A stretch of DNA of 64,000 nt from a virus. The notes beneath the pieces are model-generated. The model was given only the letters and a program-made list of their open reading frames with translations. It made no database searches and was not told the origin of the DNA. Both the position numbers and the translations under genes were made by a program. The stretch lies in UHGV virus genome UHGV-0180032. One strand, 5' to 3'. Below are positions 8,196 through 43,034 of this stretch, in pieces; position 1 is the stretch's first letter, and each line of letters opens with the position of its first letter.

Positions 8196-8224
8196 CTTTA
8201 GCTCCCGATAGAGAACTTAATATC

Positions 8225-23815: not shown

Positions 23816-23830
23816 GGAAAGGTGTGGGTA

Positions 23831-24496
23831 ATGGAAAAGCTTCAATATAAACGTTTAAATAATAAGTGGTTTGTATTAACGGAGGATTACCATTATCCGT
23901 TTACGTTACGTGAGATTTATCACGACCACGTACACTTAGACCGTGCGGTATATTTAACCGGTGTATTACCTGACACGCAACTGTGGTTAACCGCTCCGAA
24001 AGGGTTCGTAACGGACTTAGCGTCGATACCCGAACACTTACAGGGAATTTTCCATCCTGACGGGCCTTGGGCACCGGCTGCGTGTATTCACGATTTGCTA
24101 TACCAGAAATGCAGTACGGAACGTAGCTACCCTATGACGCCCGGTGGTAACGTTTCTCGCATTATCGATAAAGAGTTCGCTGACTTAACGTTTCTGCGTA
24201 TTATGCAGTCATTAGAAATCTCACCGTATATCTGCCAAACGTTTTATAAAGCCGTTGTAGGATTCGGTTGGGATGCTTACGTAGACCCTAACGCGAAACC
24301 GTCTTATACCACTAACGACTACCGTACGTTAGACTATAATCGAAACTATTTGTTCGTTCGCGAGTTTAAGGAGTCTGCTATTCCTGACCACGAACGAGTT
24401 GATATCACCACAGGTTGTCCCGTTAATGTCAAATACCTGAACATCAAACGGGCTTTTCTGTCTGGGAGGGAAGATGTTTCATCCAAATCCGAGTAA
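23831..24496 (+). CDS. DUF1353-like phage protein
   Basis: Track ORF 23822..24496 trimmed to ATG 23831; motif GFVTDLASIP...AACIHDLLY resembles DUF1353 signature. Confidence 0.5.
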   Translation: MEKLQYKRLNNKWFVLTEDYHYPFTLREIYHDHVHLDRAVYLTGVLPDTQLWLTAPKGFVTDLASIPEHLQGIFHPDGPWAPAACIHDLLYQKCSTERSYPMTPGGNVSRIIDKEFADLTFLRIMQSLEISPYICQTFYKAVVGFGWDAYVDPNAKPSYTTNDYRTLDYNRNYLFVREFKESAIPDHERVDITTGCPVNVKYLNIKRAFLSGREDVSSKSE

Positions 24497-25859: not shown

Positions 25860-26096
25860 ATGGTTACTAAAGGTTATGTCGATGACGCATTCGCCGAAAG
25901 CGAACTGTCCATTGAGAAATCCGAAGGCGACAGCGGTGCTAAAGTCTACACTGTCAAAGTAAGCGAAGGCCACATCAAATTCCTGGCTGGTACTATTGCC
26001 GTCTTCACTTATTCCAACCCAGCTCCTGAGAAGGTAGCACTGAGCGGTCTGGAAGGTGAACTTGATGGCTTCACTGCACCGGGTGTCGGTGGCTAA
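25860..26096 (+). CDS. hypothetical protein (78 aa), C-terminal GELDGFTA motif; possibly truncated or frameshifted
   Basis: Track ORF; shares C-terminal motif with 26161 product; upstream frame stays open without a start and an SD-preceded ATG at 25730 lies in another frame. Confidence 0.4.
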   Translation: MVTKGYVDDAFAESELSIEKSEGDSGAKVYTVKVSEGHIKFLAGTIAVFTYSNPAPEKVALSGLEGELDGFTAPGVGG

Positions 26097-26100
26097 TTAA

Positions 26101-26126
26101 ATCGGGGGGGGGTGACCTCCCCCGAT
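26101..26126 (+). promoter_or_regulatory. G-tract hairpin element, copy 3
   Basis: atc-G9-tgacct-C5-gat palindrome directly after stop of 25860 ORF. Confidence 0.4.
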
Positions 26127-26160
26127 ATTTCTCTAACACGTATTATTAAGGACCTAGATA

Positions 26161-26691
26161 ATGGCCGCTACTAACCAGATGATGTTGGTCGCGCTTTATA
26201 ATGCTGCTAACGCTGAGCTACCGCATCAGATTACAGATAAAGAAGTGTCCTTTGGTCTCCCTACTGCGCTGGAAGGCGAAAGTAAGAATACCAAAGTTAC
26301 CATGACTGCACTACCGGGTTCTGAGAATTTCAAAGGCGAAATCGAACTGCATTACGATCGTCTGGAACCAGGTGTTGTAGGACGGATTGAACTAACTGAC
26401 GATCTGTCTCGCTGGGTTCAAGAAAATGAACTCCGCGCTTGGTTACAATATTACATCAACAAAGTAAAACCTGACGACGCTATCGCACCAGGCGACGTTG
26501 TGTACAACACCGAAGACCAGAAAGACGAACATGAAAACGTCACTCTGCGTACCGTGACGTGCACCGTTACTGAAAAGAACCTCCGTTATAAACCGGGCGT
26601 AATGGCAACCTTCGTAATTACACCGAAGGTTGTCGATAATCGTATTGACCTGGCCACCACCAACGGTGAGTTGGACGGTTTTACTGCTTAA
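26161..26691 (+). CDS. hypothetical protein (176 aa), paralog-family member
   Basis: Track ORF; contains HYDRL motif and C-terminal NGELDGFTA. Confidence 0.55.
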   Translation: MAATNQMMLVALYNAANAELPHQITDKEVSFGLPTALEGESKNTKVTMTALPGSENFKGEIELHYDRLEPGVVGRIELTDDLSRWVQENELRAWLQYYINKVKPDDAIAPGDVVYNTEDQKDEHENVTLRTVTCTVTEKNLRYKPGVMATFVITPKVVDNRIDLATTNGELDGFTA

Positions 26692-26729
26692 TCGCTAAGT
26701 CAACTACTATAACAAAAAATAATAAGTTT

Positions 26730-26762
26730 ACCTACCTCCTTTACGGAGGTAGGTATTTTTTT
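26730..26762. terminator. bidirectional terminator
   Basis: Stem acctacctcc/ggaggtaggt, loop tttac, T-runs on both strands. Confidence 0.65.
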
Positions 26763-27435
26763 ATTCTAATCCCATTTCCAGTGCAAGAGCACGGATCGTG
26801 TCGTAGTCACGCTGTTCAGCGTACTGACGAATTTCACGTTTCTGGGCAGACATCGCGTTGTGTAACTGTTGGTCACGCTTCACAATAGCCCCCATCAACG
26901 CTTTACATTGCTCCAGCGTAAACGGTTCTATACGTGTATTCGACGTGTCCAGCCAATAATCCGGTGCAGTTTCAGACTGGATATATTGGCCCAGCATCTG
27001 ACGAGAGGTTTCGTCAGCTTGGAAATGACGACCGTCAACTTCGATGTAGCCGTGACGCTGGTCTTCGTAACGGTGTTCAATTTCCAACATGATTTTCTGG
27101 ATATCTAAATAGATATAGCGAGACGTCGAACGCATATTCGAACGAATCTCATCCAGGTCAATCTCCAGAACGTCAGTAATGAATTCTTTTGCTTTATTCA
27201 GTGTAAACTTCGACTCGATAGGAGACATTTCGTAAGTTTGCATCTGGGCTAAAGCTTCTTCATCACTCATCCCTTCAATCAACTTGTAGTGCAGTAAAGC
27301 ACAGAACCCCGTACGTCCACGGACTTCGTTACCTACACGTTCCATGTAGTTACCGTGGCGGTCAATTGGGAGATCGTGAGCGAAATAACGCGCGCGAATC
27401 TCTTCCTTCGTTAAGCTTTTGTTAGAAGCAGACAT
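26761..27435 (-). CDS. hypothetical protein (224 aa), last gene of the radical-SAM operon
   Basis: Track ORF; co-oriented and overlapping with upstream gene. Confidence 0.55.
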   Translation of the reverse strand: MSASNKSLTKEEIRARYFAHDLPIDRHGNYMERVGNEVRGRTGFCALLHYKLIEGMSDEEALAQMQTYEMSPIESKFTLNKAKEFITDVLEIDLDEIRSNMRSTSRYIYLDIQKIMLEIEHRYEDQRHGYIEVDGRHFQADETSRQMLGQYIQSETAPDYWLDTSNTRIEPFTLEQCKALMGAIVKRDQQLHNAMSAQKREIRQYAEQRDYDTIRALALEMGLE

Positions 27436-27977
27436 TCTTCTTCTCCAACCATACCTAATTCTTGCAGCAAGCCAAAATCAATCAACTGGAAGGTTTCAGA
27501 GAGATCGTTTGACCACACCACGTTTGCAATGTCGCGTTCTTCATCCGTTAACTGCGGTAACACACTTTCGTTGAACGTCTGATGCTCTACGTAATACGCA
27601 TCGTAGATAGACGTGGAACGCAAACAACGGATGGGTAGACGCGGGAAAGACACCGCTAACGCAGCAATAGACGCGCTGCTCGGATTCTCCGCTGAATAAC
27701 GAAGCAGTTCGATTTTGTGGCGTGGGTAGTCCAGTACACGTTGTTCGAAACCCGGATTACGTTTTTCGATTTCCACAACGGACTCATGGCCTGTTTCTGT
27801 GCAGTAAACAGGAATCATCACGTTTAACCCGTACTTAATCAGCAGGGGTTTAATCTCATCTGTAAAGTCTTCACCAGGGATAATGGCGTGGACGTTATAG
27901 AGTTTGTGTTTACGCAGAAAACGCTCAACCAGGTGGAGTTTACGCTTCGTAAAATTGTGGATCAGAATTGATTTCAT
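27411..27977 (-). CDS. hypothetical protein
   Basis: Track ORF 27411..28001 trimmed to second ATG (27977) with gagg SD; overlaps end of radical-SAM gene. Confidence 0.5.
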   Translation of the reverse strand: MKSILIHNFTKRKLHLVERFLRKHKLYNVHAIIPGEDFTDEIKPLLIKYGLNVMIPVYCTETGHESVVEIEKRNPGFEQRVLDYPRHKIELLRYSAENPSSASIAALAVSFPRLPIRCLRSTSIYDAYYVEHQTFNESVLPQLTDEERDIANVVWSNDLSETFQLIDFGLLQELGMVGEEECLLLTKA

Positions 27978-29274
27978 TATTTGCCTCAGTAGGTTGTGCA
28001 TTTAACGCACGTTTAGCTTGCTCACGCTCACGCGTACATTTCGGACAGTAACAAACAGACGAATCGTGCAGTGACGACGCGTGGACGGTACCTGTACGTT
28101 GACGCCAGTATTCTGCTGCCATCAGTTTGGCGGTCGTCCAACCACATTGACGACGTTCAGCGTGGTACGCCTTACGGTCTTCCAGTGTCCCTTCACCGTT
28201 TTCGTAGGATGCGGCCGCACAGCTCCCACAACCGTGTTTCATCGGACAGCCTAAGCACGTTTCAGGATAGTTGGTGTATTGCGTCTGAATCTCTTCCAGC
28301 AGTTTCCCACCGTCTAAGCTAACAAACTCACGACCGACTAACTCAAACACCGCAGAACGTGACGTTACCGTTGACATAAACCGGTTACAACCGTACACCT
28401 TACGGTCAAAACCTAAGCAGGTCATAAACGTCAACGTCCCACAGAACGGACGTAAACGTTCAGGGTTATAACGGTGCGTGTCGTCGTACAGCAGTTTATC
28501 GCGCCAATCCGGGTCCCAAATCTGACGGAAATCCAGACCTTCAGGAATGATGTGGGACAACACGTTACGTGGGTTGGTGTGCAGTCCTTTCTCAATCCAA
28601 TAATCCATCACCTCGATCATCTGCAACGCAATATCCGTCGCCATGCTTCGTGGAAGAATATCTTCGTACGTCACGTTACCTGAAATCGTACCGCCACCGG
28701 CAATATCGATTAACGACTTCATACTCGCCGCGTAATGCGGTAAGGTTTCGGACGTAAAGGTTGCCTTAATACCCAGTTCGGCGATACCCACTTCTTTTAA
28801 GTAGTTATAGCCACGAACAGCGGCTTCGTAAGAACCCTGACGCGACGTGGTAAAGATACGATAGCGGTCATGGACTTCTGGCAACCCGTCGATAGAAACA
28901 CCGATGGAGAGTTTGTCTTTCCAACGCTCAACAATCTCACGGTTTAACGGACGGTCTAACAACGTCCCGTTCGTGGAGATACTGAACATATACGGGCGGT
29001 TATGCTCCTTACACAGCTGTTCTGCGGTTTCAAACGCCGCTAACAGCAGTTTCGGTTGCATAAAAGGTTCGCCGCCGATGATATCAATAATGACGTCGAT
29101 GTTCGGAATATCTTTGTCACGCTCAAAACAGGCGTGTAAGAAATCCACGATATCCGCCGCTTTGTTATTACGCGGATACTTACGTTCGTAACAATACTCA
29201 CAGTCTAAGTTACAAGACAGGTTCGTTACCACCTGGTAAGTACGTTGTGAACGTGGTGCTTCATTATTGCTCAT
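27940..29274 (-). CDS. radical SAM enzyme with C-terminal SPASM-type Cys cluster (peptide/protein maturase-like)
   Basis: CNLDCEYC (CxxxCxxC), IIGGEPFM SAM-binding motif, C-terminal CLGCPMKHGCGSCAA plus further Cys; 444 aa. Confidence 0.85.
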   Translation of the reverse strand: MSNNEAPRSQRTYQVVTNLSCNLDCEYCYERKYPRNNKAADIVDFLHACFERDKDIPNIDVIIDIIGGEPFMQPKLLLAAFETAEQLCKEHNRPYMFSISTNGTLLDRPLNREIVERWKDKLSIGVSIDGLPEVHDRYRIFTTSRQGSYEAAVRGYNYLKEVGIAELGIKATFTSETLPHYAASMKSLIDIAGGGTISGNVTYEDILPRSMATDIALQMIEVMDYWIEKGLHTNPRNVLSHIIPEGLDFRQIWDPDWRDKLLYDDTHRYNPERLRPFCGTLTFMTCLGFDRKVYGCNRFMSTVTSRSAVFELVGREFVSLDGGKLLEEIQTQYTNYPETCLGCPMKHGCGSCAAASYENGEGTLEDRKAYHAERRQCGWTTAKLMAAEYWRQRTGTVHASSLHDSSVCYCPKCTREREQAKRALNAQPTEANNEINSDPQFYEA

Positions 29275-30181
29275 CTTTGCTTATCCTTTTACGCTCTGCA
29301 TAAATCACGCGTTTAATGTACTCGTAAGCACCTACCCCGATAGAGCAAGCAAGCTGATTGCACCCACCCTTTAAGATAGCCGGTGCATTCTGAAGCTGAT
29401 GTTCTGTTCCATCTGCGTTCAAATACAACTCTTCGCTACAGACATTACACTCGTTTTCGAAAATCTTGCTGACAGACACACCGCACGATTCTCCAGTTTG
29501 GACGTTCAGCCGTTCCATATTCTCCTGAATCTTTAAATAACCATAAACGAAGTTCATGATGTGATCGGGAGACAACGGTTTTGGCATTTGGGCATCAAAC
29601 ATCAGAGAGAACGCACGGGGACGATAGTGGTACATTGCACGATGCAGTTCCACAATATCTTCATACCAGCGCTTATCGGCTAACTGGTCACGCGTAATCA
29701 CAGCCCAGGTTTGGAAGTTATCGAGTTCGTATAACGCTTCCAGTGCTTCGTGGCTATCCTCTTCAATAAAGCGTATAAAAGGACGCTCAGAACGCTTGTA
29801 GCCATCAATTGATACAAACACATGCTCAAAGTCTTTTAGCAGCGTAAGATGCGATTTACGCAGCTTTAATCCGTTGGTATACAAGTGATGCTCAAGATGC
29901 GGATGAGACACTTTCAATTCGTTAACGAAATCCTCAATCTTACGTTGGACGAGTAGCGGTTCTCCACCGGTCCAATGTATTTCCTTAATAGCTGGATTCT
30001 CTTGTAGTAATTCCAGGATACGTTCGCGTTGAAAAGCACGAGACGAATCTTCACGATTCATGTAGTAGGCTCCACCGCAGAAACTACAGTCTAGGTTACA
30101 CTTAGACGTCGTAACTACGGACAATATAGTGGGTTTATCGTACAACTTCGTCGAGATCCTGGATTCCACATTGTCTATCAT
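29264..30181 (-). CDS. radical SAM enzyme (second, shorter) with C-terminal auxiliary Cys motifs
   Basis: CNLDCSFC, HWTGGEPLL, C-terminal CNVCSEE...GGCNQLACS; 305 aa; stop overlaps start of 27940..29274. Confidence 0.8.
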   Translation of the reverse strand: MIDNVESRISTKLYDKPTILSVVTTSKCNLDCSFCGGAYYMNREDSSRAFQRERILELLQENPAIKEIHWTGGEPLLVQRKIEDFVNELKVSHPHLEHHLYTNGLKLRKSHLTLLKDFEHVFVSIDGYKRSERPFIRFIEEDSHEALEALYELDNFQTWAVITRDQLADKRWYEDIVELHRAMYHYRPRAFSLMFDAQMPKPLSPDHIMNFVYGYLKIQENMERLNVQTGESCGVSVSKIFENECNVCSEELYLNADGTEHQLQNAPAILKGGCNQLACSIGVGAYEYIKRVIYAERKRISKDEQ

Positions 30182-30201
30182 TGCAGGTTGCTCCAGTATT
30201 T

Positions 30202-31089
30202 TTAAATATAATCGATGGCGAATAAAGGATCTTCGTCGAAGTTAACACCGGGTTTTAAAATCAGTGGTGAATTATACGCTTCCAGTAAACGGTTAAGTTC
30301 GTTGTAGCGGCTATTCATCCGTTTGAGGTCTTCTAAGGTTACAACACGGTCCAGCATCGGCTTAACCGCTTCGGCTTCTTCGTCAGTCAGCTTAACTTTC
30401 GACAGCAAGAAACTAACGAGTTTGGAAATGTCCGCTTCGGTAGCTGGGCTCTGACCAAAACGTACCTGAACCATATGCTGCATCCACGGTTTACGAATGC
30501 GTTTCGTAATTACGTGTTCGTCAGTAATGGCTTTCCAAACCGAACGTTCACGAATCCATTCAAACTTATAGCTGTAAGCCATTAAGTCAGCCAAATGCGT
30601 AATTCCGAGTTCTTGATAACCTTCAATATCGATATACGGTTCCGTATCGAAATACTCTTTGGTATCCTTCTCGACCAACGCGTAGTAGTTAGGGAATGCA
30701 CCCAGGTAGTCTGGACTCCACCAACGACGCGCCATCGGTTTAGCATCGAGTTCTTCAAACGGTGTGAACATAAGTTCTAAGTCAACTGTATTATTTAACA
30801 CACCGTCGCTAAAGAAATATTTACCATCGATAAGTTTACCGCGTTGTGAGTTGTCACCGGTAAAGACAACGATGCTTTCGCCAACCATGTCACGAATTTT
30901 GAACGTATTCTCAACCGTAAAGTTGTCACGATTAGCGATATGACGACCACGCACTTTCGGCCATTCCCCAGGAATCATGGCAATTAAGCGTACATCATCA
31001 GCAAGATGGTGACGTACCGAATCAGGGGAAGAGATGTGAAGTGGATGATTGAACGTTGTCGTATATGCAAGATGTAGATCGTTCTTCAT
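30202..31089 (-). CDS. hypothetical protein (295 aa) between precursor-like ORFs and radical SAM genes
   Basis: Track ORF; no recognisable motif. Confidence 0.6.
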   Translation of the reverse strand: MKNDLHLAYTTTFNHPLHISSPDSVRHHLADDVRLIAMIPGEWPKVRGRHIANRDNFTVENTFKIRDMVGESIVVFTGDNSQRGKLIDGKYFFSDGVLNNTVDLELMFTPFEELDAKPMARRWWSPDYLGAFPNYYALVEKDTKEYFDTEPYIDIEGYQELGITHLADLMAYSYKFEWIRERSVWKAITDEHVITKRIRKPWMQHMVQVRFGQSPATEADISKLVSFLLSKVKLTDEEAEAVKPMLDRVVTLEDLKRMNSRYNELNRLLEAYNSPLILKPGVNFDEDPLFAIDYI

Positions 31090-31238
31090 TGATTACTCCA
31101 ATTAATTCACGGTCAAACGGACGTTCAGGGTATAGAACCCACCCCGCCATTGTCTGCCGGTAACTTGAAACTCAGCAGTAAACCCATTCGATTTACTCGA
31201 TTGTTGTGTAATAGCCGTGCTACCACCGGAGGGTTTAT

Positions 31239-31445
31239 TTACCTTCCCCCCGCTCCTTTACTACAGCTACCACTGCACGCCCAGCTACAACTACCGTTAC
31301 AGTTATAGTGAGTTAACGGTAATCCCGCCAGGTTATTCGTTGAGGACACCGTACCTTGGTTAGCGATGTAGTTATTCGCGTCTGTGGTTTTAATGTAACC
31401 TTCAACCTGACCGACTCTGTCTCGAATATTTTTGAGGGAAATCAC
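31239..31445 (-). CDS. Cys-rich precursor-like peptide 1 (68 aa)
   Basis: GTG start after aggaggtga SD; N-terminal leader-like region MISLKNIRDRV...; C-terminal NCNGSCSWACSGSCSKGAGGR. Confidence 0.6.
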   Translation of the reverse strand: MISLKNIRDRVGQVEGYIKTTDANNYIANQGTVSSTNNLAGLPLTHYNCNGSCSWACSGSCSKGAGGR

Positions 31446-31455
31446 TTCTCACCTC

Positions 31456-31851
31456 CTATCGTCCTGTACACGACGAGCAGCCACCCGTACAGCTACTGGA
31501 GCACGATGCTGTACAGCCGCCCGTACAAGTGCCCGAACACGCATTAGCGCACCCACCCGAACAACTCCCCGAACATCCTGAACAACTACTGGAACACCCT
31601 GACGTGCAGTTTGCAGAGCATGAAGAACCACAACCACCAGACGCGTTCCCTGTACAACCACCAGAGCAACTCGAGCAGGTAAAGGAACACGTGCCCGCAC
31701 AATCATAATGCGCACGATTCCGACCACCGAACAGGTCCGCGTTATTCGTGGCCTTATTGCGGATGTAGTTCTGTACACCTGTGGTGTTTTTCAGCGCGAT
31801 ACTATCGACGTTATTAAGACGTCTTACTAATTCAGCTAATCCGACTGCCAT
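31456..31851 (-). CDS. Cys-rich precursor-like protein 2 (131 aa)
   Basis: SD ggggga; leader-like MAVGLAELVRRLNNVD...; long core with Cys every 3-4 residues ending CTGR; alternative-frame ORFs over the same DNA judged spurious. Confidence 0.65.
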   Translation of the reverse strand: MAVGLAELVRRLNNVDSIALKNTTGVQNYIRNKATNNADLFGGRNRAHYDCAGTCSFTCSSCSGGCTGNASGGCGSSCSANCTSGCSSSCSGCSGSCSGGCANACSGTCTGGCTASCSSSCTGGCSSCTGR

Positions 31852-31860
31852 TTCTTCCCC

Positions 31861-32253
31861 CTATCGTCCAGAGCATCCGCCGGAGCAAGCACCCGAACAG
31901 TTATGCGAACAACGCCCAGTACAACTTCCGGTACAGGTACTTGTACAACTGCTAGAACAGGCCCCCGAGCAACCGGAGCATCCTGAACAGTTGCCCCCAC
32001 AGGACGAAGAACAGCTACCCACGCACGACGCTGAACAGTTTCCTGAACAGCTCGAGCAACCGTGAGTACATCCGTTAGAACATGTCCACGAACACGCTCC
32101 CCCGCAGTCTAAACGCGAAGGCGTCCAACCGGAAAACGAATCTGCTGCGTTATGCGCTTTCGATGCGACCTGCGCATTGACACGAGGGCCGGTAGCGACT
32201 GTATTTTCTACCGTTGTTAACCGATCGCGCATTTGTTTAACACTAATCGCCAT
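31861..32253 (-). CDS. Cys-rich precursor-like protein 3 (130 aa)
   Basis: SD aaggaag; leader-like MAISVKQMRDRLTTVEN...; Cys-periodic core ending CSGR. Confidence 0.65.
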   Translation of the reverse strand: MAISVKQMRDRLTTVENTVATGPRVNAQVASKAHNAADSFSGWTPSRLDCGGACSWTCSNGCTHGCSSCSGNCSASCVGSCSSSCGGNCSGCSGCSGACSSSCTSTCTGSCTGRCSHNCSGACSGGCSGR

Positions 32254-32318
32254 TACGCTTCCTTAAAATTAAAATAGAGGAGGAACCAGCCATAAGCATA
32301 GTTCCTCCTGTAATTAAA

Positions 32319-33524
32319 TTATTTCGTACCCGCTTCCGCCTGTACGTCATCACGAGACGTCAGGTTAGCGTTAACGTGTACAGCGGCCTGAACCACACCA
32401 CCGTATCTCTTGTGGAGATAACCGCTGTGCGGGTTATCTGCCGCGATGTGGTTTTGTAGGTTCTGGTTCGCTTGACTGATTGCGTTCGTGTTATTGTTAA
32501 CCTGCTGTTTAAGCGCATCCAGGTTCTGTTGTACCTGATCGATTTTCTGATCGGTTTCTTGACCCTGTTGCTCTAACGCGGCAACACGCTGAATAACCTG
32601 ATTCAGTTTTGTGTTTAAATCGTTGATGCTCTTTTGCAGTTGTAACACTAACGAGTTCAGGTTCGCTAACGCTAAAGCCATTTTCTGGTAGTTTTGAGCA
32701 ACCACGTTAAGTTGGTCGTTCCACGCTTCCAGAGAGTTGACAACAGCGTCAATACGTTTACCTAAAGCTTCGTCTGCTTTCTTCAGTGCATTGATTTCCG
32801 TAATCGTTGCATCGATAGCAGACTGGACGTCACGAATAAGCGCACGGATTTCCGTTTCTGTTAACCCGTTAACCTGATGGATATCAAGATGGTGAACGTT
32901 ACCGGTTGCGTTGATGTGCGCATTTAAAGCGTCTAAGAAGTCATTTTTCAGGCTTTCTAAAATCGCTTTAATGTTCTCTAACTGTACCGCGTCACCGGAA
33001 CTGATCGCGTCTTTAATCCCCGCCAATACGGTGATGATATATTCAAAACCGTAGATGTCACCCACGTCTTTATACGTCGGTGCAGACGGGAATGTATCCG
33101 GTACGTTACGCAAGTCTTTAAACGCAATCGTACGGTTATCGAGGTTTAACTCAGCAATCGCCTGTTCGATAGCCACAATGTTCGCAGACTGTGGACCACC
33201 AACGACCTGCGCAGATACCGTAATATCTGTTGGAATCGCTGTGTTAGTGACCACCACCGCCATAACAATCTCGCGGTTTTTAGTCAGCTTTTCATAAGTC
33301 GGGTGTGCAAAAATCAACTCATAATCGGTACCACGTTCGTAGGTTGCATCCGGTCGGTTAGCAACGCGTAAACGGAACGTGTCCGCAAAGAACGGACCAT
33401 CAGGAAAAGCAAAAGCACGGTTTACTTTACCTGTACCTAACGTAATCTGACGCTCCACAGCGTTAGACGTTAGCGTGCCCGTTAAATCTAAAGGATATTG
33501 ATAAACAATGGAGGCCATGGCCAC
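32319..33524 (-). CDS. fibre-like coiled-coil protein (401 aa) sharing the N-terminal module of the giant proteins
   Basis: N-terminal FPDGPFFADTFRL...GTDYEL; long Gln/Asn/Leu-rich coiled-coil segment. Confidence 0.65.
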   Translation of the reverse strand: MAMASIVYQYPLDLTGTLTSNAVERQITLGTGKVNRAFAFPDGPFFADTFRLRVANRPDATYERGTDYELIFAHPTYEKLTKNREIVMAVVVTNTAIPTDITVSAQVVGGPQSANIVAIEQAIAELNLDNRTIAFKDLRNVPDTFPSAPTYKDVGDIYGFEYIITVLAGIKDAISSGDAVQLENIKAILESLKNDFLDALNAHINATGNVHHLDIHQVNGLTETEIRALIRDVQSAIDATITEINALKKADEALGKRIDAVVNSLEAWNDQLNVVAQNYQKMALALANLNSLVLQLQKSINDLNTKLNQVIQRVAALEQQGQETDQKIDQVQQNLDALKQQVNNNTNAISQANQNLQNHIAADNPHSGYLHKRYGGVVQAAVHVNANLTSRDDVQAEAGTK

Positions 33525-33558
33525 TCTCCTTTATTCGAGACGTCCTTGTCCCGAGTCA

Positions 33559-36500
33559 TTAAGATGTAAACATAAGATTGAACTGGAGTTTGTCGATATC
33601 GCGAGTTTCTGCCGGATTCACGGCATCGTACGCGGTCGCTACGTAAACGGTTAGCGTACCGTTCGCGTAAGACGATTTCACCGGTGGGTTAGTTCCGGAC
33701 TGACCATCTCGCACAATGAGTGTAGGTTCACTTGGGAGATTGTCAAACTGACCCTTAACCGCTTTATATACCAAACCCGATTGCGCAGCCAGTTCAGTGT
33801 CCGTAAAGACAAAGAACGGTGTGTCGATATCAGCCTGTTTGATTGTAGTACCAGACTCGACGTCAATCAACTGTACCGCCCCAAACTTCGTACGATAACT
33901 TCCATACTCGTTCTTCGGAATAACGAACGTGACATGAACACGAACCTCCTCGGCGGGTTTAAACCCACTGTGCTCTTTTTCCAGGTACTGGTTGGCGGTT
34001 AACGTTACCGTTTGTTCAGTCATCGTACCACCGGCCTGGTTTATTGCATACCGAGCTTCAACAATACCGGTTGGTGCAGCAAGTCGCAGTTTCAGAGCAC
34101 GATTCGCCGTTCCTGGATTACCTGGCACCTGAACGCGCAAACTCAATGTTAGGTAAGCATTCGTTCCGGTAGTCGGTTTCGTATACGCACCAATCCATTT
34201 CATGTTCGCAGACGCTGCCTGCGTGTTCTCAGAAGCAGTGGCTGTCGCAATGTTAGCAGCTACCGCTTTCTGCCAGAATTGGTCAGCGCAGTTCTCATAC
34301 GCTACCCTGGCCACGCTCTTATAACCCGAATACGTTTCCTGAATTGGTAACTTAGGACGCGTCGTAATGCCAGACAGTGAACCCCATTTCTGACCGTCAA
34401 CATACCCTTCACCTTTTGACGCAGACGCCGTAGGTGCTTTAACAGGCTTGTTAACCAGCGTTAATAGAGGACCCGTCTTTCTGTCAAACGCTGCTGCAAC
34501 ATCATGTTGGTCGATAATCGCTGCGTGGTCTTCCAGTTCTTTCACACGGCCCAAGCGTTTTACTTTGTCGATACGGATATCCGTAATACGGTTGGAATCA
34601 GTGGTTACTGTCCCGACGAACAGTCTCGTTGAAGTATCAGCTAACTGCTCCAAACCGATACGGTATTGCGCAGTAGAACCCGACACCTCAGCGTGCACGT
34701 AGAACGTCTGGTTAGCGTGGTTAGACGGGAATTCGCTGCTTAAGTCCACAGACCACGTTGGGAGCGTGTAACTGCTGCTACCGAAGTCTAATTTGACTTC
34801 TTCCGTCAAATATAGAATCCAGCCTTCTGCTGTCTCCACACCGGCAATAATAACAGCCTGACCTTCGGTTGAGAACGTCGTGTCGTTAACAAACTCTGCG
34901 GCTGTATACGCGTTACCTGAACAGAAAACACGGTCAGCTTTAGAGTAAATCAACGCCATCTTGTCCCAATCACCGGCACCCATAAAGCAGCCTGATTCTG
35001 GTCTATGTGCAGGGGCCATCTGTCGTAACTGTGATTTACCTGCAACGCGTGTCCAACCTGAACCAGGGTCGAAGGTATATTTCGCAGCGTAGCCCAGGGC
35101 GTTTAAGTCCCCGATATTTCGGGTAGTTAACGTATAAGGTAGCCAGATACCGAAGTTAGTTCCATCCACAGATGCAAAAATAGGCTGTCCCACGCGCCGC
35201 GTTTTACCACCCCCTTCTTCCCTCAAAGACTGATAACTTAAACCATAATCGAGGTCTAAGAACCAGTCCACCAACTTAAAGGTAGCGGAGTTGAAACGTA
35301 AGTAGCCGTTCTCTTTAGATGGGCTCACCATGAAGTAATAGATGTCCAGAATTCGACGTCCGTTACTTGAGGTTTTCATGCACGAAACTTGCAACAAGTC
35401 AAATTCGCACACGGTGTTGATACCCAACATCCAAAGAGCAAACAATGCATTACCGGTTTGATGGGCAGCACTAATACGTTCGTTCGCGTATCCGTTCGCT
35501 TCACCGGAAGGCGCACCGTCGACGATCATCCGAATCATTTTCTGCCGATCGGCTTCTTCTAACGTTAAACGTTCGGAGGACAACGCGAAATTACCGTAGA
35601 TGTTGCGATACGGGAACGTTTCTGCTTTGGTCAAATACCAACCGTTTAACTGTCCATGACGCTCCTCAGGGATCATACACGCAGCCATACAGCTAAGCTG
35701 CTCGTAAAGCGTCGCATCAACTTCACGACGGTTGTTGTTCGGACCGTACCCACTATACCCAGAAACATCGTAAGGTTTGTTCGGATCAACTTCCACTTCG
35801 ATCGTGTAACGGTTACGAGGGTTCGATAACCAGACCTTATTCGAACCACCAATCCCTACTGGATAAGACAAACCGATGGTGTAAATGGAGCCACGGCCTT
35901 TATCCCAGGTAAACGTTCCTTCGCCCGAGGTGTTGTTTGGGTTATCGTAACGCAGATAATCGAAAAGCTCTCTGCCTTGTGTACTCTTAATAGAAACATT
36001 AGGCATTTGGTCCGCATCGGCAATTTGCCAACAGGAAAGCATCATTCCTGTACCGTTGGGTTTAGCATACGTCGCGAAACAACGGTTGTTTGCCTGGCCA
36101 CCACCCCACTTACGATTGGTTCCTACAGTTGAACCATCTGCGAACGAGAGTGTAGTAGTAGCATCAGCCTTGATGGGGAAGCGTTCGCGGCCTTCTAACG
36201 TAACCTTGCCCGTCAACGTATCGATTGTAAAACTTGTTGCCCATTGAAGGAAATTAATCGTCGTACCGTCGGCCGCTGCAAACCACACGGTAGGCATATG
36301 GTTCACACGAATCACGCTATCGCGCACAGCACACGCGTGGTTACATTCTGGACCGTGAACAAAGTTACGCCCGATCGTCCATTTAGCACGACCCTCCGGT
36401 GTGAGATATGTAAAGAATTGACCCGTTTGCGACTCTTCGGTTTTCTGACCAATACGCAAGCAGAGGTTATCTCCGAATTGTCCCATCTCGCCGGTTAGAG

Positions 36501-38745
36501 TTACACGTTCAAATTCTAACGTAGTGTTAGTAGACAAATCGGCCTTACGTAGACGCCAAGCTGCTACGGCGTAAGCGGAGTTATTTACCGTTGAACGGAG
36601 AAGATAAACGTAGTCCTCAACCAACACGACATCGTCAGCTTCCGGCCACGGGTTCCAGGTTTGTTCCACAGTACCACTGGGGTTGCCGTTACGGTACACG
36701 GGCATCGTAACGCGACATACCACCGTGTGCTTAGTGTGGTCCATCGAGCCATTAAACAGCACCAAATAACGGTTATTGTCAGAACCCAGGCAAATAATCG
36801 CTTCCTGGCCACCGATCAAAATAGCTTTTAGGGTCACTCCAGGATATTTACTCATCCCGGCAGGGTGATATTTCACTGAGGTCTGCTGCGGATTTACAAA
36901 CGCGTTTGACGTGTCAATGTCAGCATAGCCGTAATAAATAGCTTCCGTACCCGGCACGCCGTTAGAACCGTTACGGAGCGAATAAACCTTACCCTGCTGA
37001 TACCCAACAACCCCTTTCTGGTAAGACTGGTTTTTGGTGTAGCCTGCGTAGTTGCCTAACGCTGGGATAGGTAAGAAGTTTTTATTACCGAATTTCGCAC
37101 CGCCTACTGTCCATGCCGGTAAGATGGTATTCAGTTTATCAGAGACCTTCTTAATCTCTTTTGCGAACAACCACCCTTGACGTGACGTGACAGCTTTATC
37201 GTTAGTGGTGTCAATTGCATCCCACAGCTGTAAGATACCATCAACCGTTGCACTACCAATCGGGACGTTATCCAAGTCAGCAGTGGTGTGGGTGTGCGTC
37301 TTCAAACTCTTGTTTTTCAACACGTTCGTTAACGCTTTTGTCACAGGCTTAGCACTCGGTATGGTGTTATCCATCTTATCGATACCGAAATCGGTTTTCG
37401 TTAAGGTTAACACCATGTTGTCGCCCGTCTTAACAAACCCTTTACCGTTAACGGTATAGTCATCGTCAACGTACAAGTCCAACCGGTCTTTTAATTCAGT
37501 TACGGCTTTCTGGGAGATAGCAGTACCTAACGCCGCAGACGTAGAGATATTCGTAATCGAGAACAACCCATAAACTGATTCGGACGCTGTGGGAATATTC
37601 GCGTTTAACGTGACCGGGTTAGTCTGTTTTGCGGTACCGTACGGTTTTACTGTGTCTGACGCTTTGAAATACGCGTTTGCTTCAAGCAACGTTACTGACG
37701 TCAGATACATGTTCACCATTTCTGGTGTAACCAGGTACACAGAGTTATAAACCGGTGCTAATACGTCCTGCTCTGACCCTGAGTGAACCCAAAGTGTATT
37801 CAGACCCGCACTGAATTCAACCGCTAAACCCGATTCGTTGTTGTCCTGGTCTGCTTTAATCACTAACGGTTGTGGCGAGGTAATTAACCACTTATCACCA
37901 CGAATACTGATGATGTGACCACCTGACGTTTTAAACGTTAATTCATTACCGTTCGTGGTGCCCCATCGACCGTAAACGGTGCCGAGGGCTTCACCCATTA
38001 ACTTGTCAACGTCGGATTGCTCAATACCCGCTGACCCCATCAGCGTAGCCAATTCGTCAATCGTTAACCCAAACGCTTTTGTGGCGTCAACCGCACGTCC
38101 TAATACGGGGAGAGCAGCAACGTCATCAGTGGTATAGTGATGCGCGTTAGGATTACGGTGATGCTGGTATAATTCTTCGTCGAAAACCTTTTTCCCGTTC
38201 TCGTAAATCAGGTTAGTGACTTCACTGAACGCAGCATCTAATTCCGTAGAACGTTTGATGATTTTCTTGCGAATGTCTTCTAAAGCCTTAACGACCTCGT
38301 CCCTCAGAATCGCTTCTTCTAAGTTAGCAGGCGGGTCGATAGGCTGAATAACCGGCGCATACGCCATTAGTTCAGACCAGTCCACGTTACGTGGGTCTTT
38401 CAGGTCAGTACGAACTAAGAACTTCCCGATTTCAGATTGCGGTACACGGTATTGACGTGCTACCCCTAAAATCTCGTATTCGATTTCTGTTGCGGTAAGC
38501 AACATAAACCCGCCGTAAATCTGATCCTGCTCAGCTTCGGCGAGTTCTTTAAAGTAATAGCCTAAATAGTAGTCCAACCCCTCAATCAGAGTACGACGTC
38601 CGTTAGGCGCGGTATCGTCGGCTACTGTGAGTTTTAATCCGATACGATAAAAAGGTCCTTCGGGTGGAATGACCACGTTAAATCGGTTAGGGTACGTCGC
38701 TGTGCTTAGCGTACCGTTAAACTGCGCCGCGTCTTCTCTCGGCAT
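33559..38745 (-). CDS. giant tail-fibre/tailspike-like protein (1728 aa)
   Basis: N-terminal PPEGPFYRIGLKL...GLDYYL module shared with neighbours; long ORF. Confidence 0.7.
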   Translation of the reverse strand: MPREDAAQFNGTLSTATYPNRFNVVIPPEGPFYRIGLKLTVADDTAPNGRRTLIEGLDYYLGYYFKELAEAEQDQIYGGFMLLTATEIEYEILGVARQYRVPQSEIGKFLVRTDLKDPRNVDWSELMAYAPVIQPIDPPANLEEAILRDEVVKALEDIRKKIIKRSTELDAAFSEVTNLIYENGKKVFDEELYQHHRNPNAHHYTTDDVAALPVLGRAVDATKAFGLTIDELATLMGSAGIEQSDVDKLMGEALGTVYGRWGTTNGNELTFKTSGGHIISIRGDKWLITSPQPLVIKADQDNNESGLAVEFSAGLNTLWVHSGSEQDVLAPVYNSVYLVTPEMVNMYLTSVTLLEANAYFKASDTVKPYGTAKQTNPVTLNANIPTASESVYGLFSITNISTSAALGTAISQKAVTELKDRLDLYVDDDYTVNGKGFVKTGDNMVLTLTKTDFGIDKMDNTIPSAKPVTKALTNVLKNKSLKTHTHTTADLDNVPIGSATVDGILQLWDAIDTTNDKAVTSRQGWLFAKEIKKVSDKLNTILPAWTVGGAKFGNKNFLPIPALGNYAGYTKNQSYQKGVVGYQQGKVYSLRNGSNGVPGTEAIYYGYADIDTSNAFVNPQQTSVKYHPAGMSKYPGVTLKAILIGGQEAIICLGSDNNRYLVLFNGSMDHTKHTVVCRVTMPVYRNGNPSGTVEQTWNPWPEADDVVLVEDYVYLLRSTVNNSAYAVAAWRLRKADLSTNTTLEFERVTLTGEMGQFGDNLCLRIGQKTEESQTGQFFTYLTPEGRAKWTIGRNFVHGPECNHACAVRDSVIRVNHMPTVWFAAADGTTINFLQWATSFTIDTLTGKVTLEGRERFPIKADATTTLSFADGSTVGTNRKWGGGQANNRCFATYAKPNGTGMMLSCWQIADADQMPNVSIKSTQGRELFDYLRYDNPNNTSGEGTFTWDKGRGSIYTIGLSYPVGIGGSNKVWLSNPRNRYTIEVEVDPNKPYDVSGYSGYGPNNNRREVDATLYEQLSCMAACMIPEERHGQLNGWYLTKAETFPYRNIYGNFALSSERLTLEEADRQKMIRMIVDGAPSGEANGYANERISAAHQTGNALFALWMLGINTVCEFDLLQVSCMKTSSNGRRILDIYYFMVSPSKENGYLRFNSATFKLVDWFLDLDYGLSYQSLREEGGGKTRRVGQPIFASVDGTNFGIWLPYTLTTRNIGDLNALGYAAKYTFDPGSGWTRVAGKSQLRQMAPAHRPESGCFMGAGDWDKMALIYSKADRVFCSGNAYTAAEFVNDTTFSTEGQAVIIAGVETAEGWILYLTEEVKLDFGSSSYTLPTWSVDLSSEFPSNHANQTFYVHAEVSGSTAQYRIGLEQLADTSTRLFVGTVTTDSNRITDIRIDKVKRLGRVKELEDHAAIIDQHDVAAAFDRKTGPLLTLVNKPVKAPTASASKGEGYVDGQKWGSLSGITTRPKLPIQETYSGYKSVARVAYENCADQFWQKAVAANIATATASENTQAASANMKWIGAYTKPTTGTNAYLTLSLRVQVPGNPGTANRALKLRLAAPTGIVEARYAINQAGGTMTEQTVTLTANQYLEKEHSGFKPAEEVRVHVTFVIPKNEYGSYRTKFGAVQLIDVESGTTIKQADIDTPFFVFTDTELAAQSGLVYKAVKGQFDNLPSEPTLIVRDGQSGTNPPVKSSYANGTLTVYVATAYDAVNPAETRDIDKLQFNLMFTS

Positions 38746-38839
38746 CGTAAAGACTCCTACTTTTAAATAAAATGGATACCCCTCCCCATTACAGGGAGGG
38801 GTTACCTACGGACACACAACTGCCCGCAGGCAGCCTGTC

Positions 38840-41800
38840 CTAAGTACGATCCCCTAACTGCTTCCCGTTAAGTTCTCGTTTCAGTACAGAAAGTATCCAT
38901 TTCCACGCTTTACTCGTGATGTGGTACGGATTGCGTTTCTCCATTAAGAACTGCTTTTCACCGCTACGCAGTTCGAAGCTCTGCGCATTAAGCTGATCCT
39001 GACGAGTGCTTTGCTCATCGGTCACATCTAACGAACAGGTAAAGTTAAGCTCGTAACCTTCAGGATTATTACCCGGCGGGTCTAAGACAATATAGATGTC
39101 CTGACCTACACGTAAGTCGGTGGCCGTGATACTAATCGCTTTACCTACGTCAGCGCTGGTCGACAGAGCAAACTCCGCACTGTCCGTAGACGCTAAGAAT
39201 GGGTCTTTCCCTGCGTCACCGATAATCACCTTACCTGGCCAGTTACTTTTTATCGTTCCCGTCACTTTTGCAATTCGGTACTGTTGTTTATCGGCACCTT
39301 GTGCAAAACGGAGAATGAGTTTGTGACGATAACGACTTGCAGCAGCCTTAGTCGTACTCCACTCGTTGTTCCAGGAAGTGTGCAGTTCGTTGTTCTTCGC
39401 CATCAACGCACCGCGAGACAGCTTACGATCAAAGAACTGCGCAGGTAACTGCCCATCATGAGAAACCGCAACGCTTCCCTGACCAGTTGGCAAGGCAATG
39501 CTCTCCGTAACGCGATATTTCTGACTAATCTCATAAGTCGCAGGGTCAATCACAGACTGACTATAATCAGCGTCTTTGTTATCAGCCAAATACCCAACGG
39601 ATGAATCCAGATACGACTCAAACAGCGAACGTAAGTAATGATACTTATCAATGTTGATGTTGTTCGTAACCGGATCAATCAGCGCATGGCTAATCGTTAC
39701 TCGGCATTTCGCACTCAGTTCTTTAAACGACAACCCTATTCCGTCACCGGTGAAATAATCCACTAAGTCGAACGGGAATTGAATTTCCAACTGACGTTGT
39801 TTAACTGTCGTCGTCCCAAACTGCGAGAACGACAACGCTAAACGCAGCACACGCGTACTTACGTTATAACGGTAACGAATCATCCCACGAGGTGCATGGT
39901 TTGCAGAGATTTTATCTCGAGCGGCACCCCAGCCAATCAAATCGAGAATCGCGGGGTTGGTTTCTTCACCGTTGAACAACACGTCCTTAAACGTTGCATT
40001 CACCGCTGTTTCCCCAGACTCTTCCATTACCAACGGAATGTCAGTAACGTCTGAAACTGAACGGGAACCAATCCCCAACTTGCACGCTTTGGCCGTCAGA
40101 TCGATACGTACGTAACGGCGTTTAACACTCGCCCCTTGCGTTGACGTACACAGCACCAAATCCGGTGCAGCAGTAAGTGCTTGTGTTCCACCGACGTCGT
40201 CAACGTCAAACACAAACGAACCTTCGAATGTCGGTGCGTTGTTTTCTTTCGGGTTAAACGGTGTAAACCAGCAATACGGTGTAGCGCCTTCAGGTATCAC
40301 AACGTACTGAAGACTGGACTTCACGTTTTGGTTGTGTGCGTAAGTATAAAGACCACGACTGACAAGATGGAAAACATCACCTGTACCGGCTGCTAACGCT
40401 TTCCTAAAGATACACGCTCTCGGTTCGGCAATGGCACGGTTTAATAACGGCAACCGTGGGTTATCCGTTAACGCCCAGTCCACAGAACTGAGTCCGTGTG
40501 CTTTACGCGTGGCGATGTGTCCACTAACCTCGGCACTTTTCCCGAAATCAAACGTGGTTTCGAACCCTACCGTTTTATTCGCGTAATTCTCACCAGCAAC
40601 AATATCAACGTAACCGATATAACCGCGTTCAGGATCAACCGCGACGCTCTGAATCGGTTCAGCACGCGAATACAGAGAGCCTGTGAGCATGTTAACGTAC
40701 AGATAGTGACGAATCCCTACGTGCGTGGTAACAAACTCCTGGAGAAGCTCTACGCGCGTTTCAGGGCCACTGAAGTAAACGGGGTAATCCCCATCGTAAA
40801 CTTCAAACTGTACCGCTGCGGACTTAGCCGTATCGCTACATTCGGCTTTAACCGCTATTGTGTAGTTTTCAACGTCTGATGACGTTTCGTACACTGCAAC
40901 GAGCGGAGACTCGCCTGACGCTGCCAGGTTACCGTTAATGTAAACCGTAACCGGACCGCCGCCCGCAGCATAAACCCAGAGCTTTGATTGGTACGCCCTT
41001 ACACGCGTTTTTGCCAGTACCGTAACCACTGACTGGTCACCCATCTGAGTAGCGGTTTTACCTACCGCAACAGACTGGAATCCCATCAACGGCGGTTCTT
41101 CAATACCTGTCCAGTTGATTCCCGTACCGTTACTCACCTTACCCGTAGGCCAAGTCAGTTCAAGCTGGTTGTTAGGTGAGAACCAGTTAAACATCGGGGT
41201 GGTTTGCAGGTCAATCGCACCAGTAACGGTACTGTCGCCTTTCGTCCCGTCCAGCAAATAGAAATATTTCAAATCCTGAACAGAGATTGACGTACCCTGG
41301 CTATTAAAACGCCAGTCCGCACCTTTCACAGCAGCAAAATCGGTTACCGTACCTTCTTTCGCGTTTGCAATTGCCGCAGCGACCACATCTAAACGTGCTG
41401 AAAGCTCTTTTAGGATGTTCGGTACCACCGCTCGGTTTTCAACTAAGCCGTTCTGGTTAGTTGCGTAACGACCAATACCGTAAATCGTCTGCGAGGCTTT
41501 ATAAATGCCTAACTCTGACCAGTCGTGATGGTGACCGACATCTGCTAAACCACTAACCGAAGCATTCAGTGCGGTAGACAACGGTTTGTCAAGGTCTGCG
41601 GTGTTATCCGCTTGCCCTAATCCCAGGTCAGCTTTCGTGATTGTCCTGGAACCGTCGTTCATCGGCTTACCGTTAATCATGGTCGTTTTAGTCACGTACC
41701 CTGATAAGTCGGTTGAATACGGCGTTAATGACGCAGGAGTTGCTGCAACCCCAACCGTTTCTGTGCCTTTACCGGTTTTAAGCTTAACAACACCTTTTTC

Positions 41801-43024: not shown

Positions 43025-43034
43025 AAAATTCTCC

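Follow-up and report, generated by a model that had tools for sequence, protein, structure and literature searches.

The 64,000-nucleotide stretch of virus genome UHGV-0180032 analysed here (the window) carries on its minus strand two overlapping genes for radical S-adenosylmethionine (SAM) enzymes of 444 and 305 amino acids (aa), preceded by a gene for an orphan-family protein of 295 aa and by three open reading frames (ORFs) for cysteine-repeat proteins, termed A, B and C. Read 5′ to 3′ on the minus strand, the gene order is three giant proteins of 1440, 1394 and 1728 aa, a 401-aa protein, the Cys ORFs of 130, 131 and 68 aa, the 295-aa protein, the 305-aa and 444-aa radical SAM enzymes, a 196-aa protein and a 224-aa DUF4376 protein, and the gene order matches that of SPN3US genes 161-168. 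The region shares ~74% nucleotide identity with SPN3US-like jumbo phages (genus Seoulvirus), SPN3US gp163 is 83% identical to the 444-aa protein, and identical (100%) copies of that protein occur in a 226-kb contig of a Salmonella Chester assembly and in one IMG/VR contig. At least 63 sequenced isolates carry the module, all of them SPN3US/phiEaH2/CR5-type jumbo phages. An earlier note on this DNA had described the ORF positions, the motifs CNLDCEYC and CNLDCSFC, the overlap of the two enzyme genes (the start of the 444-aa gene is overlapped by 11 nucleotides), their order after the 295-aa and Cys-rich ORFs, and the co-orientation of the locus with giant fibre genes; all of this was recovered, with the three giant virion-structural paralogues and a 401-aa paralogue lying upstream on the same strand. 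The genes of the module are:

27940..29274, minus strand: SPASM-type radical SAM maturase, 444 aa, homologue of SPN3US gp163 (Pfam Radical_SAM, 5e-14)
29264..30181, minus strand: smaller radical SAM enzyme, 305 aa, homologue of SPN3US gp164 (Pfam Radical_SAM, 1.2e-14)
30202..31089, minus strand: orphan-family protein, 295 aa, homologue of SPN3US gp165 (phrog_8030, 1e-138)
31239..31445, minus strand: Cys-repeat protein C, 68 aa, 4 Cys (phrog_6085, 1.9e-25; strong Shine-Dalgarno sequence AGGAGG before GTG)
31456..31851, minus strand: Cys-repeat protein B, 131 aa, 20 Cys (phrog_6085, 1.6e-42)
31861..32253, minus strand: Cys-repeat protein A, 130 aa, 21 Cys (phrog_6085, 1.6e-36; Shine-Dalgarno sequence AAGGAAG)

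The 444-aa protein matches Pfam Radical_SAM (PF04055) with 53.2 bits (cut-off 29.5), and carries the CX3CX2C motif as CNLDCEYC at residues 21-28 together with a GGEPF motif. Its C-terminal cysteines (278, 286, 296, 340, 343, 349, 352 and 377, with further ones at 408, 410 and 413) follow a SPASM pattern of C278, C286-x9-C296, C340-x2-C343-x5-C349-x2-C352 and C377. Among 19 homologues, down to 26% identity, C286, C296, C340, C343, C349, C352 and C377 are invariant and C278 is frequent; the last spacing is CX2C, compared with CX3C in the class pattern. A profile of the family aligned with CteB (PDB 5WGG) at 4e-38 across CteB residues 104-429, covering both the radical SAM core and the SPASM domain (1e-12 with the single sequence), and with anSME at 7e-18, SPASM region included. 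The best NCBIfam match was TIGR04115, 'radical SAM peptide maturase, CXXX-repeat target family' (2e-36; 126.2 bits against a cut-off of 350), followed by PapB (6.5e-32; 111 bits against a cut-off of 340) and then by the HxsB, SCIFF, QhpD and anSME types. No RiPP recognition element (RRE; RiPP, ribosomally synthesised and post-translationally modified peptide) was detected anywhere in the module by profile and structure comparisons, including the N-terminus of the 444-aa enzyme, where only 20 residues precede the CX3CX2C motif. Judged by its sequence, the 444-aa protein is a SPASM-type peptide or protein maturase without an RRE, not a nucleotide or cofactor enzyme. It is placed as a sister clade of TIGR04115 because its 126 bits fall below the cut-off of 350 and the repeats of its presumed targets score 17.6-19.5 against a cut-off of 20. 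The earlier note had called it a maturase typical of the SPASM class; the cysteine pattern and the CteB and anSME alignments bear this out, but 'SCIFF/anSME-type' should be taken to denote resemblance, not membership. Beyond the SPASM domain lies a C-terminal CxCxxC motif (CYCPKC, residues 408-413, window 28036-28053), which is kept only in the jumbo-phage clade (as CYCVSC, CNCYQC, CQCPNC and others) and is absent from prophage and gut-phage relatives.

The 305-aa enzyme matches Pfam Radical_SAM with 55.3 bits (cut-off 29.5) and has its CX3CX2C motif, CNLDCSFC, at residues 28-35 and a GGEPLL motif. It lacks the seven-cysteine SPASM pattern. In an alignment of nine sequences from the same kind of locus, C245 and C274 are invariant beyond the core and C248 is present in 7/9 homologues; these residues could form at most a twitch-like partial auxiliary site, and the C-terminal Cys motifs that the earlier note had reported come down to them and nothing further. 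The best NCBIfam matches (tungsten-cofactor maturase, MoaA and HxsC) reach 47-52 bits against cut-offs of 268-380 and cover the core only. Assignment as MoaA, QueE, NrdG or viperin was rejected, the matches being confined to the core at 39-52 bits and far under the cut-offs, in agreement with the earlier view that the usual phage roles of NrdG, QueE and viperin do not apply. Profile searches had been named in that note as the way to tell peptide maturases from nucleotide- or cofactor-modifying enzymes; they put the 444-aa enzyme among the peptide maturases, but they returned no RRE and no family that the 305-aa enzyme fits. A full-length homologue of the 305-aa enzyme adjoins the SPASM enzyme in a Campylobacter prophage (BLASTP 6e-6 over 286 aa), and a small radical SAM gene also stands beside the SPASM enzyme in a Deferribacter prophage and in loci L019, L088 and L089. 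A relative with 84% identity on a 224-kb contig (L016) has an extra copy of the small enzyme gene (4552-5472) between two long Cys-repeat genes, making three radical SAM genes in total. In GenBank record JN641803 (SPN3US) the pair carries the label 'putative radical SAM superfamily protein 1/2'; one automated annotation has AlbA and MoaA instead.

For the 295-aa protein, no Pfam or NCBIfam family was matched. Its AlphaFold2 (AF2) model has a predicted local distance difference test score (pLDDT) of 87 and a predicted template modelling score of 0.83, and comparison of the model with the PDB and BFVD gave no fold match and no known chaperone fold. An exhaustive profile search found only 46 relatives among 1.84 billion representative proteins, all of them stand-alone proteins of 230-320 aa with a conserved core at residues ~160-275. 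The protein is homologous to 250-aa proteins of the Deferribacter (6e-12) and Campylobacter (0.002) modules, the hidden Markov model of the family finds members in L018/19, L088 and L089, and the family is present in nearly all versions of the two-enzyme module examined. It may, as a weak suggestion, be a substrate-handling or chaperone partner.

All three Cys-repeat paralogues have a conserved leader of ~50 residues, with an N-terminal helix and a fibre-like '...NAxxLGGxxxxHY' junction, followed by a Cys core, and their genes adjoin those of the enzymes in a RiPP-like layout. The 49-aa leader of A is followed by 21 Cys (17 spacings of 4 and 3 spacings of 3), the 50-aa leader of B, ending in ...ATNNADLFGGRNRAHYD, by 20 Cys chiefly in C-S/T-G-x tetrads, and the ~48-aa leader of C by CNGSCSWACSGSC. 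No Asp or Glu occurs in any of the three cores, and tryptic sites are nearly absent from them. These ORFs are real genes and not low-complexity artefacts, because substitutions relative to SPN3US and pEa_SNUABM_29 are biased to the third codon position (27/17/77 at positions 1/2/3 for A, 32/28/77 for B and 15/8/27 for C) and because each has its own Shine-Dalgarno sequence, with intergenic gaps of 9-10 nucleotides. Every Cys is kept in these comparisons, against synonymous differences in ~40% of codons. The window contains no other long CxxxC ORFs. The TIGR04114 Cys-rich repeat model scores A at 19.5 and B at 17.6 bits, both narrowly under its cut-off of 20, and the phrog_6085 profile also matches targets of true TIGR04115 members. 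Reference records treat this interval poorly: in SPN3US (NC_027402, L001 12409-13438, corresponding to window 31239-32253) gp166/ACQ60_gp100 is misframed over ORF B and both A and C are unannotated, in pEa_SNUABM_29 (L002 11412-12434) two opposite-strand ORFs are annotated over it, and in the SPLA1a record it is wholly empty. Published proteomes are uninformative on A, B and C because the genes are missing or misframed in the SPN3US records, and a word-indexed protein search with the Cys protein returned only 8 matches because gene callers miss Cys-repeat ORFs. A precomputed match to PF27846.1 exists for four Cys-repeat proteins (P0167, P0169, P0170 and P0172), and a recent Pfam entry may already model the repeat.

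The association between enzyme and repeat was counted across viral loci. An IMG/VR scan with the enzyme alignment gave 378 relatives, and 80 loci were kept for the neighbourhood count, a Cys-repeat ORF being defined by at least nine chained Cys with spacings of 2-5 on the same strand and, for these first 80 loci, within 3 kb. Such an ORF was present in 75/80 loci, and three of the five loci lacking one are truncated contigs; 616 kb of more distant flank held only 2, both extra paralogues in one locus. A second viral scan, seeded with members of the two-enzyme class described below (class I), added few new two-enzyme loci and gave 58/60, so that 133/140 phage contigs in all carry a long CxxxC-repeat ORF on the strand of the enzyme. 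The control was a single generic pattern scan of bacterial genomes, yielding mostly other SPASM families (e.g. Geobacter), and here the count was 12/79, the 12 positive loci being chiefly those whose enzyme resembles the query over nearly its full length. The window itself has three CXXX-repeat genes within 3 kb of the 444-aa gene on the same strand. Because the association in viral loci is specific to this enzyme clade, the Cys repeats are, with high confidence, the predicted substrates of the radical SAM module, and the connection between the enzymes and the Cys-rich ORFs proposed in the earlier note has become considerably firmer.

Two architectures were distinguished. Class I, to which the window belongs, has the order Cys-repeat protein, 295-aa family, small radical SAM enzyme, SPASM radical SAM enzyme. 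Class II, chiefly on gut-phage contigs, has one radical SAM enzyme beside a Cys protein of 200-570 aa with a conserved non-Cys domain of ~100 aa. Class II enzymes score far higher with TIGR04115 (497 and 513 bits for L028 and L037, ~308 bits for others, cut-off 350) than L003 (155 bits) and L004 (144 bits), relatives that belong to class I. The phrog_6085 profile matches the repeats of both classes, which are therefore regarded as one superfamily. On several gut-phage contigs the maturase gene is split by in-frame stops into 2-4 ORFs, by TAG in L033, L036, L065, L066, L069, L080, L081 and L085 and by TGA in L082; the stops lie near locus position 8000-9200 and are always the same codon in a given contig, which suggests stop-codon-recoded phages and not pseudogenes. 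A 136-kb contig (L238, 2201-9765) has five radical SAM ORFs and two ~200-aa proteins with a CxCxxxC repeat, e.g. CTCNARCSCNCNYAC. This cluster recalls Aeromonas giant phage 332-Vera, where a 2025 paper reported eight radical SAM genes in the tail-fibre cluster, described as 'highly unusual' and left unexplained (PMC12390700).

In other phages the repeat is joined to a tail fibre. In a P2-like prophage of Campylobacter pinnipediorum (L004), a 384-aa fibre matching Pfam Phage_tail_fib (1.8e-40) has CNGCSGSCSGSCSSGCTACSGCSGSC at its end, its last 38 residues being CNGCSGSCSGSCSSGCTACSGCSGSCSGKSDGCGCRHS, and the gene order is baseplate J, tail protein I, fibre, 250-aa homologue of the 295-aa family, both radical SAM enzymes, DUF1353 and sheath. 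A Deferribacter abyssi prophage encodes a 302-aa fibre-like protein with HxH..YY repeats that ends '...ATNADQLGGQAGSYYRCSDCSWTCSSSC...' with at least 28 Cys, in the order GpJ-like tip protein, two small ORFs, 302-aa protein, 250-aa homologue and both radical SAM enzymes. The same Cys-repeat tail is carried by a 600-aa fibre-like protein on a 213-kb phage contig (L017). In L088 the gene of a 76-aa Cys protein starts within that of a T7-type fibre (phrog_1640, 1e-29; overlap ATGA) and is followed by a 295-family homologue, two radical SAM enzymes and, further on, a tail-fibre assembly chaperone gene, and in L089 a DUF4376 gene lies 3′ of the radical SAM pair, as in the window. Two class II loci have the Cys gene directly 3′ of minor-tail or tail-fibre genes. 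The leader junction of the window proteins (...ATNNADLFGGRNRAHYDCAGTCSFTC) aligns with the fused proteins of L003 (1e-6) and L017 (3e-5) exactly at the repeat boundary, and the phrog_6085 profile matches the C-termini of these proteins at 4e-12 and 3e-14. In unrelated prophages the Cys repeat is the C-terminal tail of a fibre. This split-versus-fused pattern across phages is the chief ground for expecting the small jumbo-phage proteins to associate with a fibre, and the suggestion in the earlier note that the enzymes could act on virion components gains support.

In the window, the module lies between fibre genes and a terminator-like hairpin, and the neighbouring features are:

32319..33524, minus strand: 401-aa virion structural protein, homologue of SPN3US gp167 (phrog_2163 'virion structural protein', 2.4e-104; coiled-coil matches)
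33559..38745, minus strand: 1728-aa baseplate/fibre protein, homologue of SPN3US gp168 (phrog_7449 over the full length; synteny with SPN3US_0168)
27411..28001, minus strand: 196-aa protein, function not assigned (phrog_7988, 8.6e-78)
26761..27435, minus strand: 224-aa DUF4376 protein, last minus-strand gene of the unit (Pfam DUF4376, 1.5e-10)
26729..26755, no strand assigned: bidirectional terminator-like hairpin (perfect 11-bp stem with flanking T-runs; consensus match only)

The 1728-aa gene lies directly 5′ of the 401-aa gene in the same orientation, and mutant proteomics identified its SPN3US counterpart, gp168, as a tail 'baseplate/fiber protein' of 188 kDa (PMC5105663). The 401-aa protein has a long coiled coil, and its N-terminal phrog_2163 domain also forms the N-terminus of the 1728-, 1394- and 1440-aa proteins. 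The interval 32319-47357 (minus strand) can thus be described as a four-member set of baseplate/fibre paralogues (401, 1728, 1394 and 1440 aa) with a common N-terminal domain and differing distal parts, a kind of set described for SPN3US gp168 and phiKZ gp131. The 401-aa protein is a candidate shaft for the Cys-repeat proteins. At the other end, the 196-aa gene is found 3′ of the radical SAM pair only in the SPN3US-like clade (14 loci), and the 224-aa DUF4376 protein matches phrog_2837 'tail protein' (5e-6) and phrog_1807 'tail fiber protein' (2e-3). The hairpin at 26729-26755 separates convergent genes at 26161-26691 (plus strand) and 26761-27435 (minus strand), and is likely, from its sequence, the end of the fibre/radical SAM transcription unit; a scan of 26000-34000 for minus-strand terminator-like matches 5′ of it gave one weak match only (33066-33050, 7 pairs, 3 G-C). 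A sigma-70 promoter scan found 8 matches against 10.3 expected, showing no enrichment with a model that is not applicable to phiKZ-like transcription. A DUF1353 protein (1.2e-15), for which the RefSeq SPN3US label is 'tail assembly chaperone', is encoded ~3 kb from the module at 23822-24496 (plus strand); a DUF1353 gene also lies directly 3′ of the radical SAM pair in the Campylobacter prophage (L004 10068-10433), and there may be an accessory link.

The explanation favoured here, to which we give a probability of about 0.55, is that a four-part module in a tail-fibre operon modifies a fibre-associated Cys-repeat protein, probably by thioether cross-links. The substrates would be the three small paralogues, each a leader with a C-S/T-G-x core (21, 20 and 4 Cys), and the SPASM enzyme would act on their cysteines to form many short-range thioether (S-C) cross-links, so that a floppy Cys/Ser/Gly chain would become a rod or knot held by covalent staples. 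Thioethers, in contrast to disulfides, can form in the reducing cytoplasm and would resist reductants. The 305-aa enzyme and the 295-aa protein would supply a second modification and/or present the substrate, a presentation role being proposed because no component has a recognisable RRE. The product would be a tail-fibre component or attachment and not a secreted natural product, since the leader junction and repeat correspond to a fibre C-terminus in other phages. The reality of the genes, the enzyme class, the association of enzyme and repeat, the fibre fusions and the conservation of the module are shown by the analysis. Confidence differs between the other parts of this explanation: it is high for the repeats as substrate, moderate for thioether chemistry, which is argued by analogy with CteB, PapB and QhpD, and moderate for incorporation of the Cys-repeat proteins into the virion, and weak for the roles of the 305-aa and 295-aa proteins, for which the basis is strict co-occurrence. 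The wider proposal, that phages of unrelated tail types (phiKZ-like jumbo, P2-like, lambda-like and T7-fibre-bearing) covalently cross-link a distal fibre Cys-x-x-x repeat by radical SAM chemistry, is put forward more tentatively and may well not hold in this breadth.

Several results weigh against this explanation. On the enzyme side, the Pfam SPASM model gave no match to the 444-aa protein at E<=0.1, leaving the SPASM call of the earlier note without that support, and the enzyme missed all curated family cut-offs. On the chemical side, the A, B and C cores have no acidic residues, which excludes the Asp or Glu acceptors of PapB and QhpD; Ser, Thr, Gly, Asn or Ala would have to take that role, and the chemistry of PapB and QhpD is not directly transferable. 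The AF2 model of protein A, built from a 6-sequence alignment, has a pLDDT of 38 and an N-terminal helix only; such non-folding would fit a chain that needs cross-links or partners, proves nothing, and is silent on a solenoid or rod. As to location, the presence of A, B and C in virions is proposed from fibre fusions in other phages, the jumbo-phage Cys proteins stand alone with a leader-core layout like that of RiPP precursors, and the ~100-aa domain of class II has no recognised fibre fold. A bacterial member of the repeat family, P0172, has a twin-arginine signal peptide. Finally, on a 279-kb contig (L019) the 295-family homologue and both radical SAM enzymes lie 3′ of a 909-aa helicase-like gene (4133-6862) and not of tail genes, and the sole candidate substrate is a 97-aa ORF (6883-7176) ending in CESCAMGCHGPQ (CESCAMGC), which may be a minimal or free-peptide version.

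These last observations bear most directly on the rival that fares best, a diffusible phage RiPP, in which the two radical SAM enzymes would mature the precursors and lysis would set them free, whether or not the leader had been removed, to act off the virion (as a bacteriocin, a signal, a metal chelator or an anti-defence factor, for instance), the fibre operon serving only to give late expression. Stand-alone genes, the leader-core layout and the three paralogues are what a RiPP would show, the families nearest to the 444-aa enzyme are RiPP maturases, the L019 variant has a minimal Cys peptide outside a tail context, and the twin-arginine signal of P0172 implies that some members of the repeat family are exported. 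However, the unit has no immunity gene, and Pfam, NCBIfam and PHROG searches found no peptidase or transporter family in any of its ORFs; moreover, tail-fibre proteins of at least three other lineages contain the repeat as a covalent part, the fibre sequence that precedes it shares homology with the leader junction, and the module lies consistently 3′ of fibre or minor-tail genes across differing tail types. A diffusible product is accordingly considered unlikely, though it is the rival to be taken most seriously.

Less probable still is an assembly aid, in which the Cys segment, whether modified or not, would behave as C-terminal intramolecular chaperones or Tfa proteins do in other fibres, nucleate trimerisation of the 401-aa or giant fibres and then be cleaved or dissociate, with the 295-aa protein as a fibre chaperone. 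The repeat occupies the extreme C-terminus of the fused fibres, which is the site of intramolecular chaperones, the 250-aa homologue of the Campylobacter P2-like prophage takes the position of the fibre-assembly gene G, and putative chaperone genes are close by, as a tail-fibre assembly chaperone gene just 3′ of the module in L088 and as DUF1353 ('tail assembly chaperone'), which lies close to the module in the window and immediately follows it in Campylobacter. Against this, no protease or autocleavage motif was identified, the model of the 295-aa protein is unlike any known chaperone fold, and two Fe-S radical enzymes for a disposable segment would be unparsimonious. Coincidental adjacency, with metal- or Fe-S-binding (metallothionein-like) Cys proteins of the virion or the cytoplasm beside radical SAM enzymes acting on a nucleotide, cofactor or lipid, is very improbable: the 305-aa enzyme does have cofactor-type best matches (tungsten-cofactor maturase and MoaA, in the core only), Cys-rich repeats can bind metals and T4-type fibre tips are generally known to bind metal ions, but the association in 133/140 loci is specific to the enzyme clade, peptide maturases align with the 444-aa enzyme from end to end, and the curated name of TIGR04115 already designates a CXXX repeat as the target.

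Folding, proteolysis, chaperones and metal binding are the routes by which virion proteins are usually held to mature, and radical SAM chemistry is not among them. If the proposed modification of a fibre-associated protein is correct, it would be the first case of a virion structural protein modified post-translationally by enzymatic radical chemistry, and would produce a 'stapled' fibre tip proof against reductants. The redox state of the infected cell could then influence fibre function or host range, because the Fe-S clusters of radical SAM enzymes are oxygen-labile. Since amber-mutant genetics and virion proteomics exist for SPN3US, the idea is directly testable. For RiPP enzymology, the CXXX-repeat family would gain a biological setting, with unusually long and regular substrates, and a two-enzyme variant that lacks an RRE and brings a new accessory fold. 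For phage biology and engineering, a stapled protease- and reductant-resistant fibre element could affect gut stability, host range and fibre design; as to annotation, reference jumbo-phage genomes omit or misframe three conserved genes. No literature linking these enzymes and CXXX repeats with tail fibres or phage tail modules was found; new here is the Cys repeat as a tail-fibre C-terminus, followed by a 295-aa-family protein and/or the radical SAM pair.

Among known systems, the needle of T4 gp37, P2 H/G and C-terminal intramolecular chaperones resemble the proposed product in their distal or C-terminal fibre position, and the HxH..Y repeats before the Cys tail of the Deferribacter protein, together with an accessory gene after the fibre gene, recall the T4 and P2 fibre-tip systems. 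Those systems use non-covalent metal coordination or folding chaperones, whereas the window module has radical SAM enzymes; we know of no fibre-tip system of the T4 gp37 or P2 H/G kind that uses radical SAM chemistry, and none was found in the literature. HxsB/HxsC offers the same pairing of a SPASM enzyme with a smaller non-SPASM radical SAM enzyme as the 444/305 pair (7e-21 and 74.5 bits for the 444-aa enzyme against HxsB, cut-off 370; 1.5e-12 and 47.1 bits for the 305-aa enzyme against HxsC, cut-off 268), but the window lacks a His-Xaa-Ser repeat peptide and HxsD. The closest solved structure to the 444-aa enzyme is that of the SCIFF maturase CteB, with which the radical SAM core and SPASM cysteines align. 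CteB forms a Cys-Thr thioether and has an N-terminal RRE of ~100 residues that the phage enzyme lacks, the SCIFF maturase model TIGR03974 scores the 444-aa enzyme at 55.7 against a cut-off of 425, and the six-Cys-in-45 pattern of SCIFF substrates is unrelated to that of the window.

PapB, which makes several short-range Cys thioethers (CX3D units) in one substrate, PapA, to give freyrasin, belongs like the 444-aa enzyme to the SPASM enzymes, and its model has no long N-terminal extension. Compared with PapA, the window substrates are 4-20 times more repetitive, have no Asp or Glu acceptor and lie in no export or protease context, and Cys-Asp chemistry of the PapB type was rejected for this phage on account of the cores without acidic residues. 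The SPASM enzyme QhpD introduces multiple structural Cys-Asp/Glu thioethers into the QhpC subunit, which stays in its complex. By analogy, QhpD would be the best functional precedent for the module; it is the third-best family for the single-enzyme relatives (1e-30) and matches the 444-aa enzyme at 4e-15, far under the cut-off of 453, and it differs in its Asp/Glu acceptors, its periplasmic redox enzyme context and its non-viral setting.

The nearest counterpart is the TIGR04115/TIGR04114 system (with TIGR04117), which has the same type of target as the window, long C-x-x-x runs. To our knowledge this pair has been defined bioinformatically, and no experimental characterisation of it is known to us or was found. 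Compared with TIGR04115, the window clade adds a second radical SAM enzyme and an orphan protein of 230-320 aa, and its targets carry a fibre-type junction or a fibre fusion. The module is a divergent two-enzyme variant of this uncharacterised CXXX-repeat/SPASM system, located in tail-fibre modules and sometimes fused to the fibre itself.

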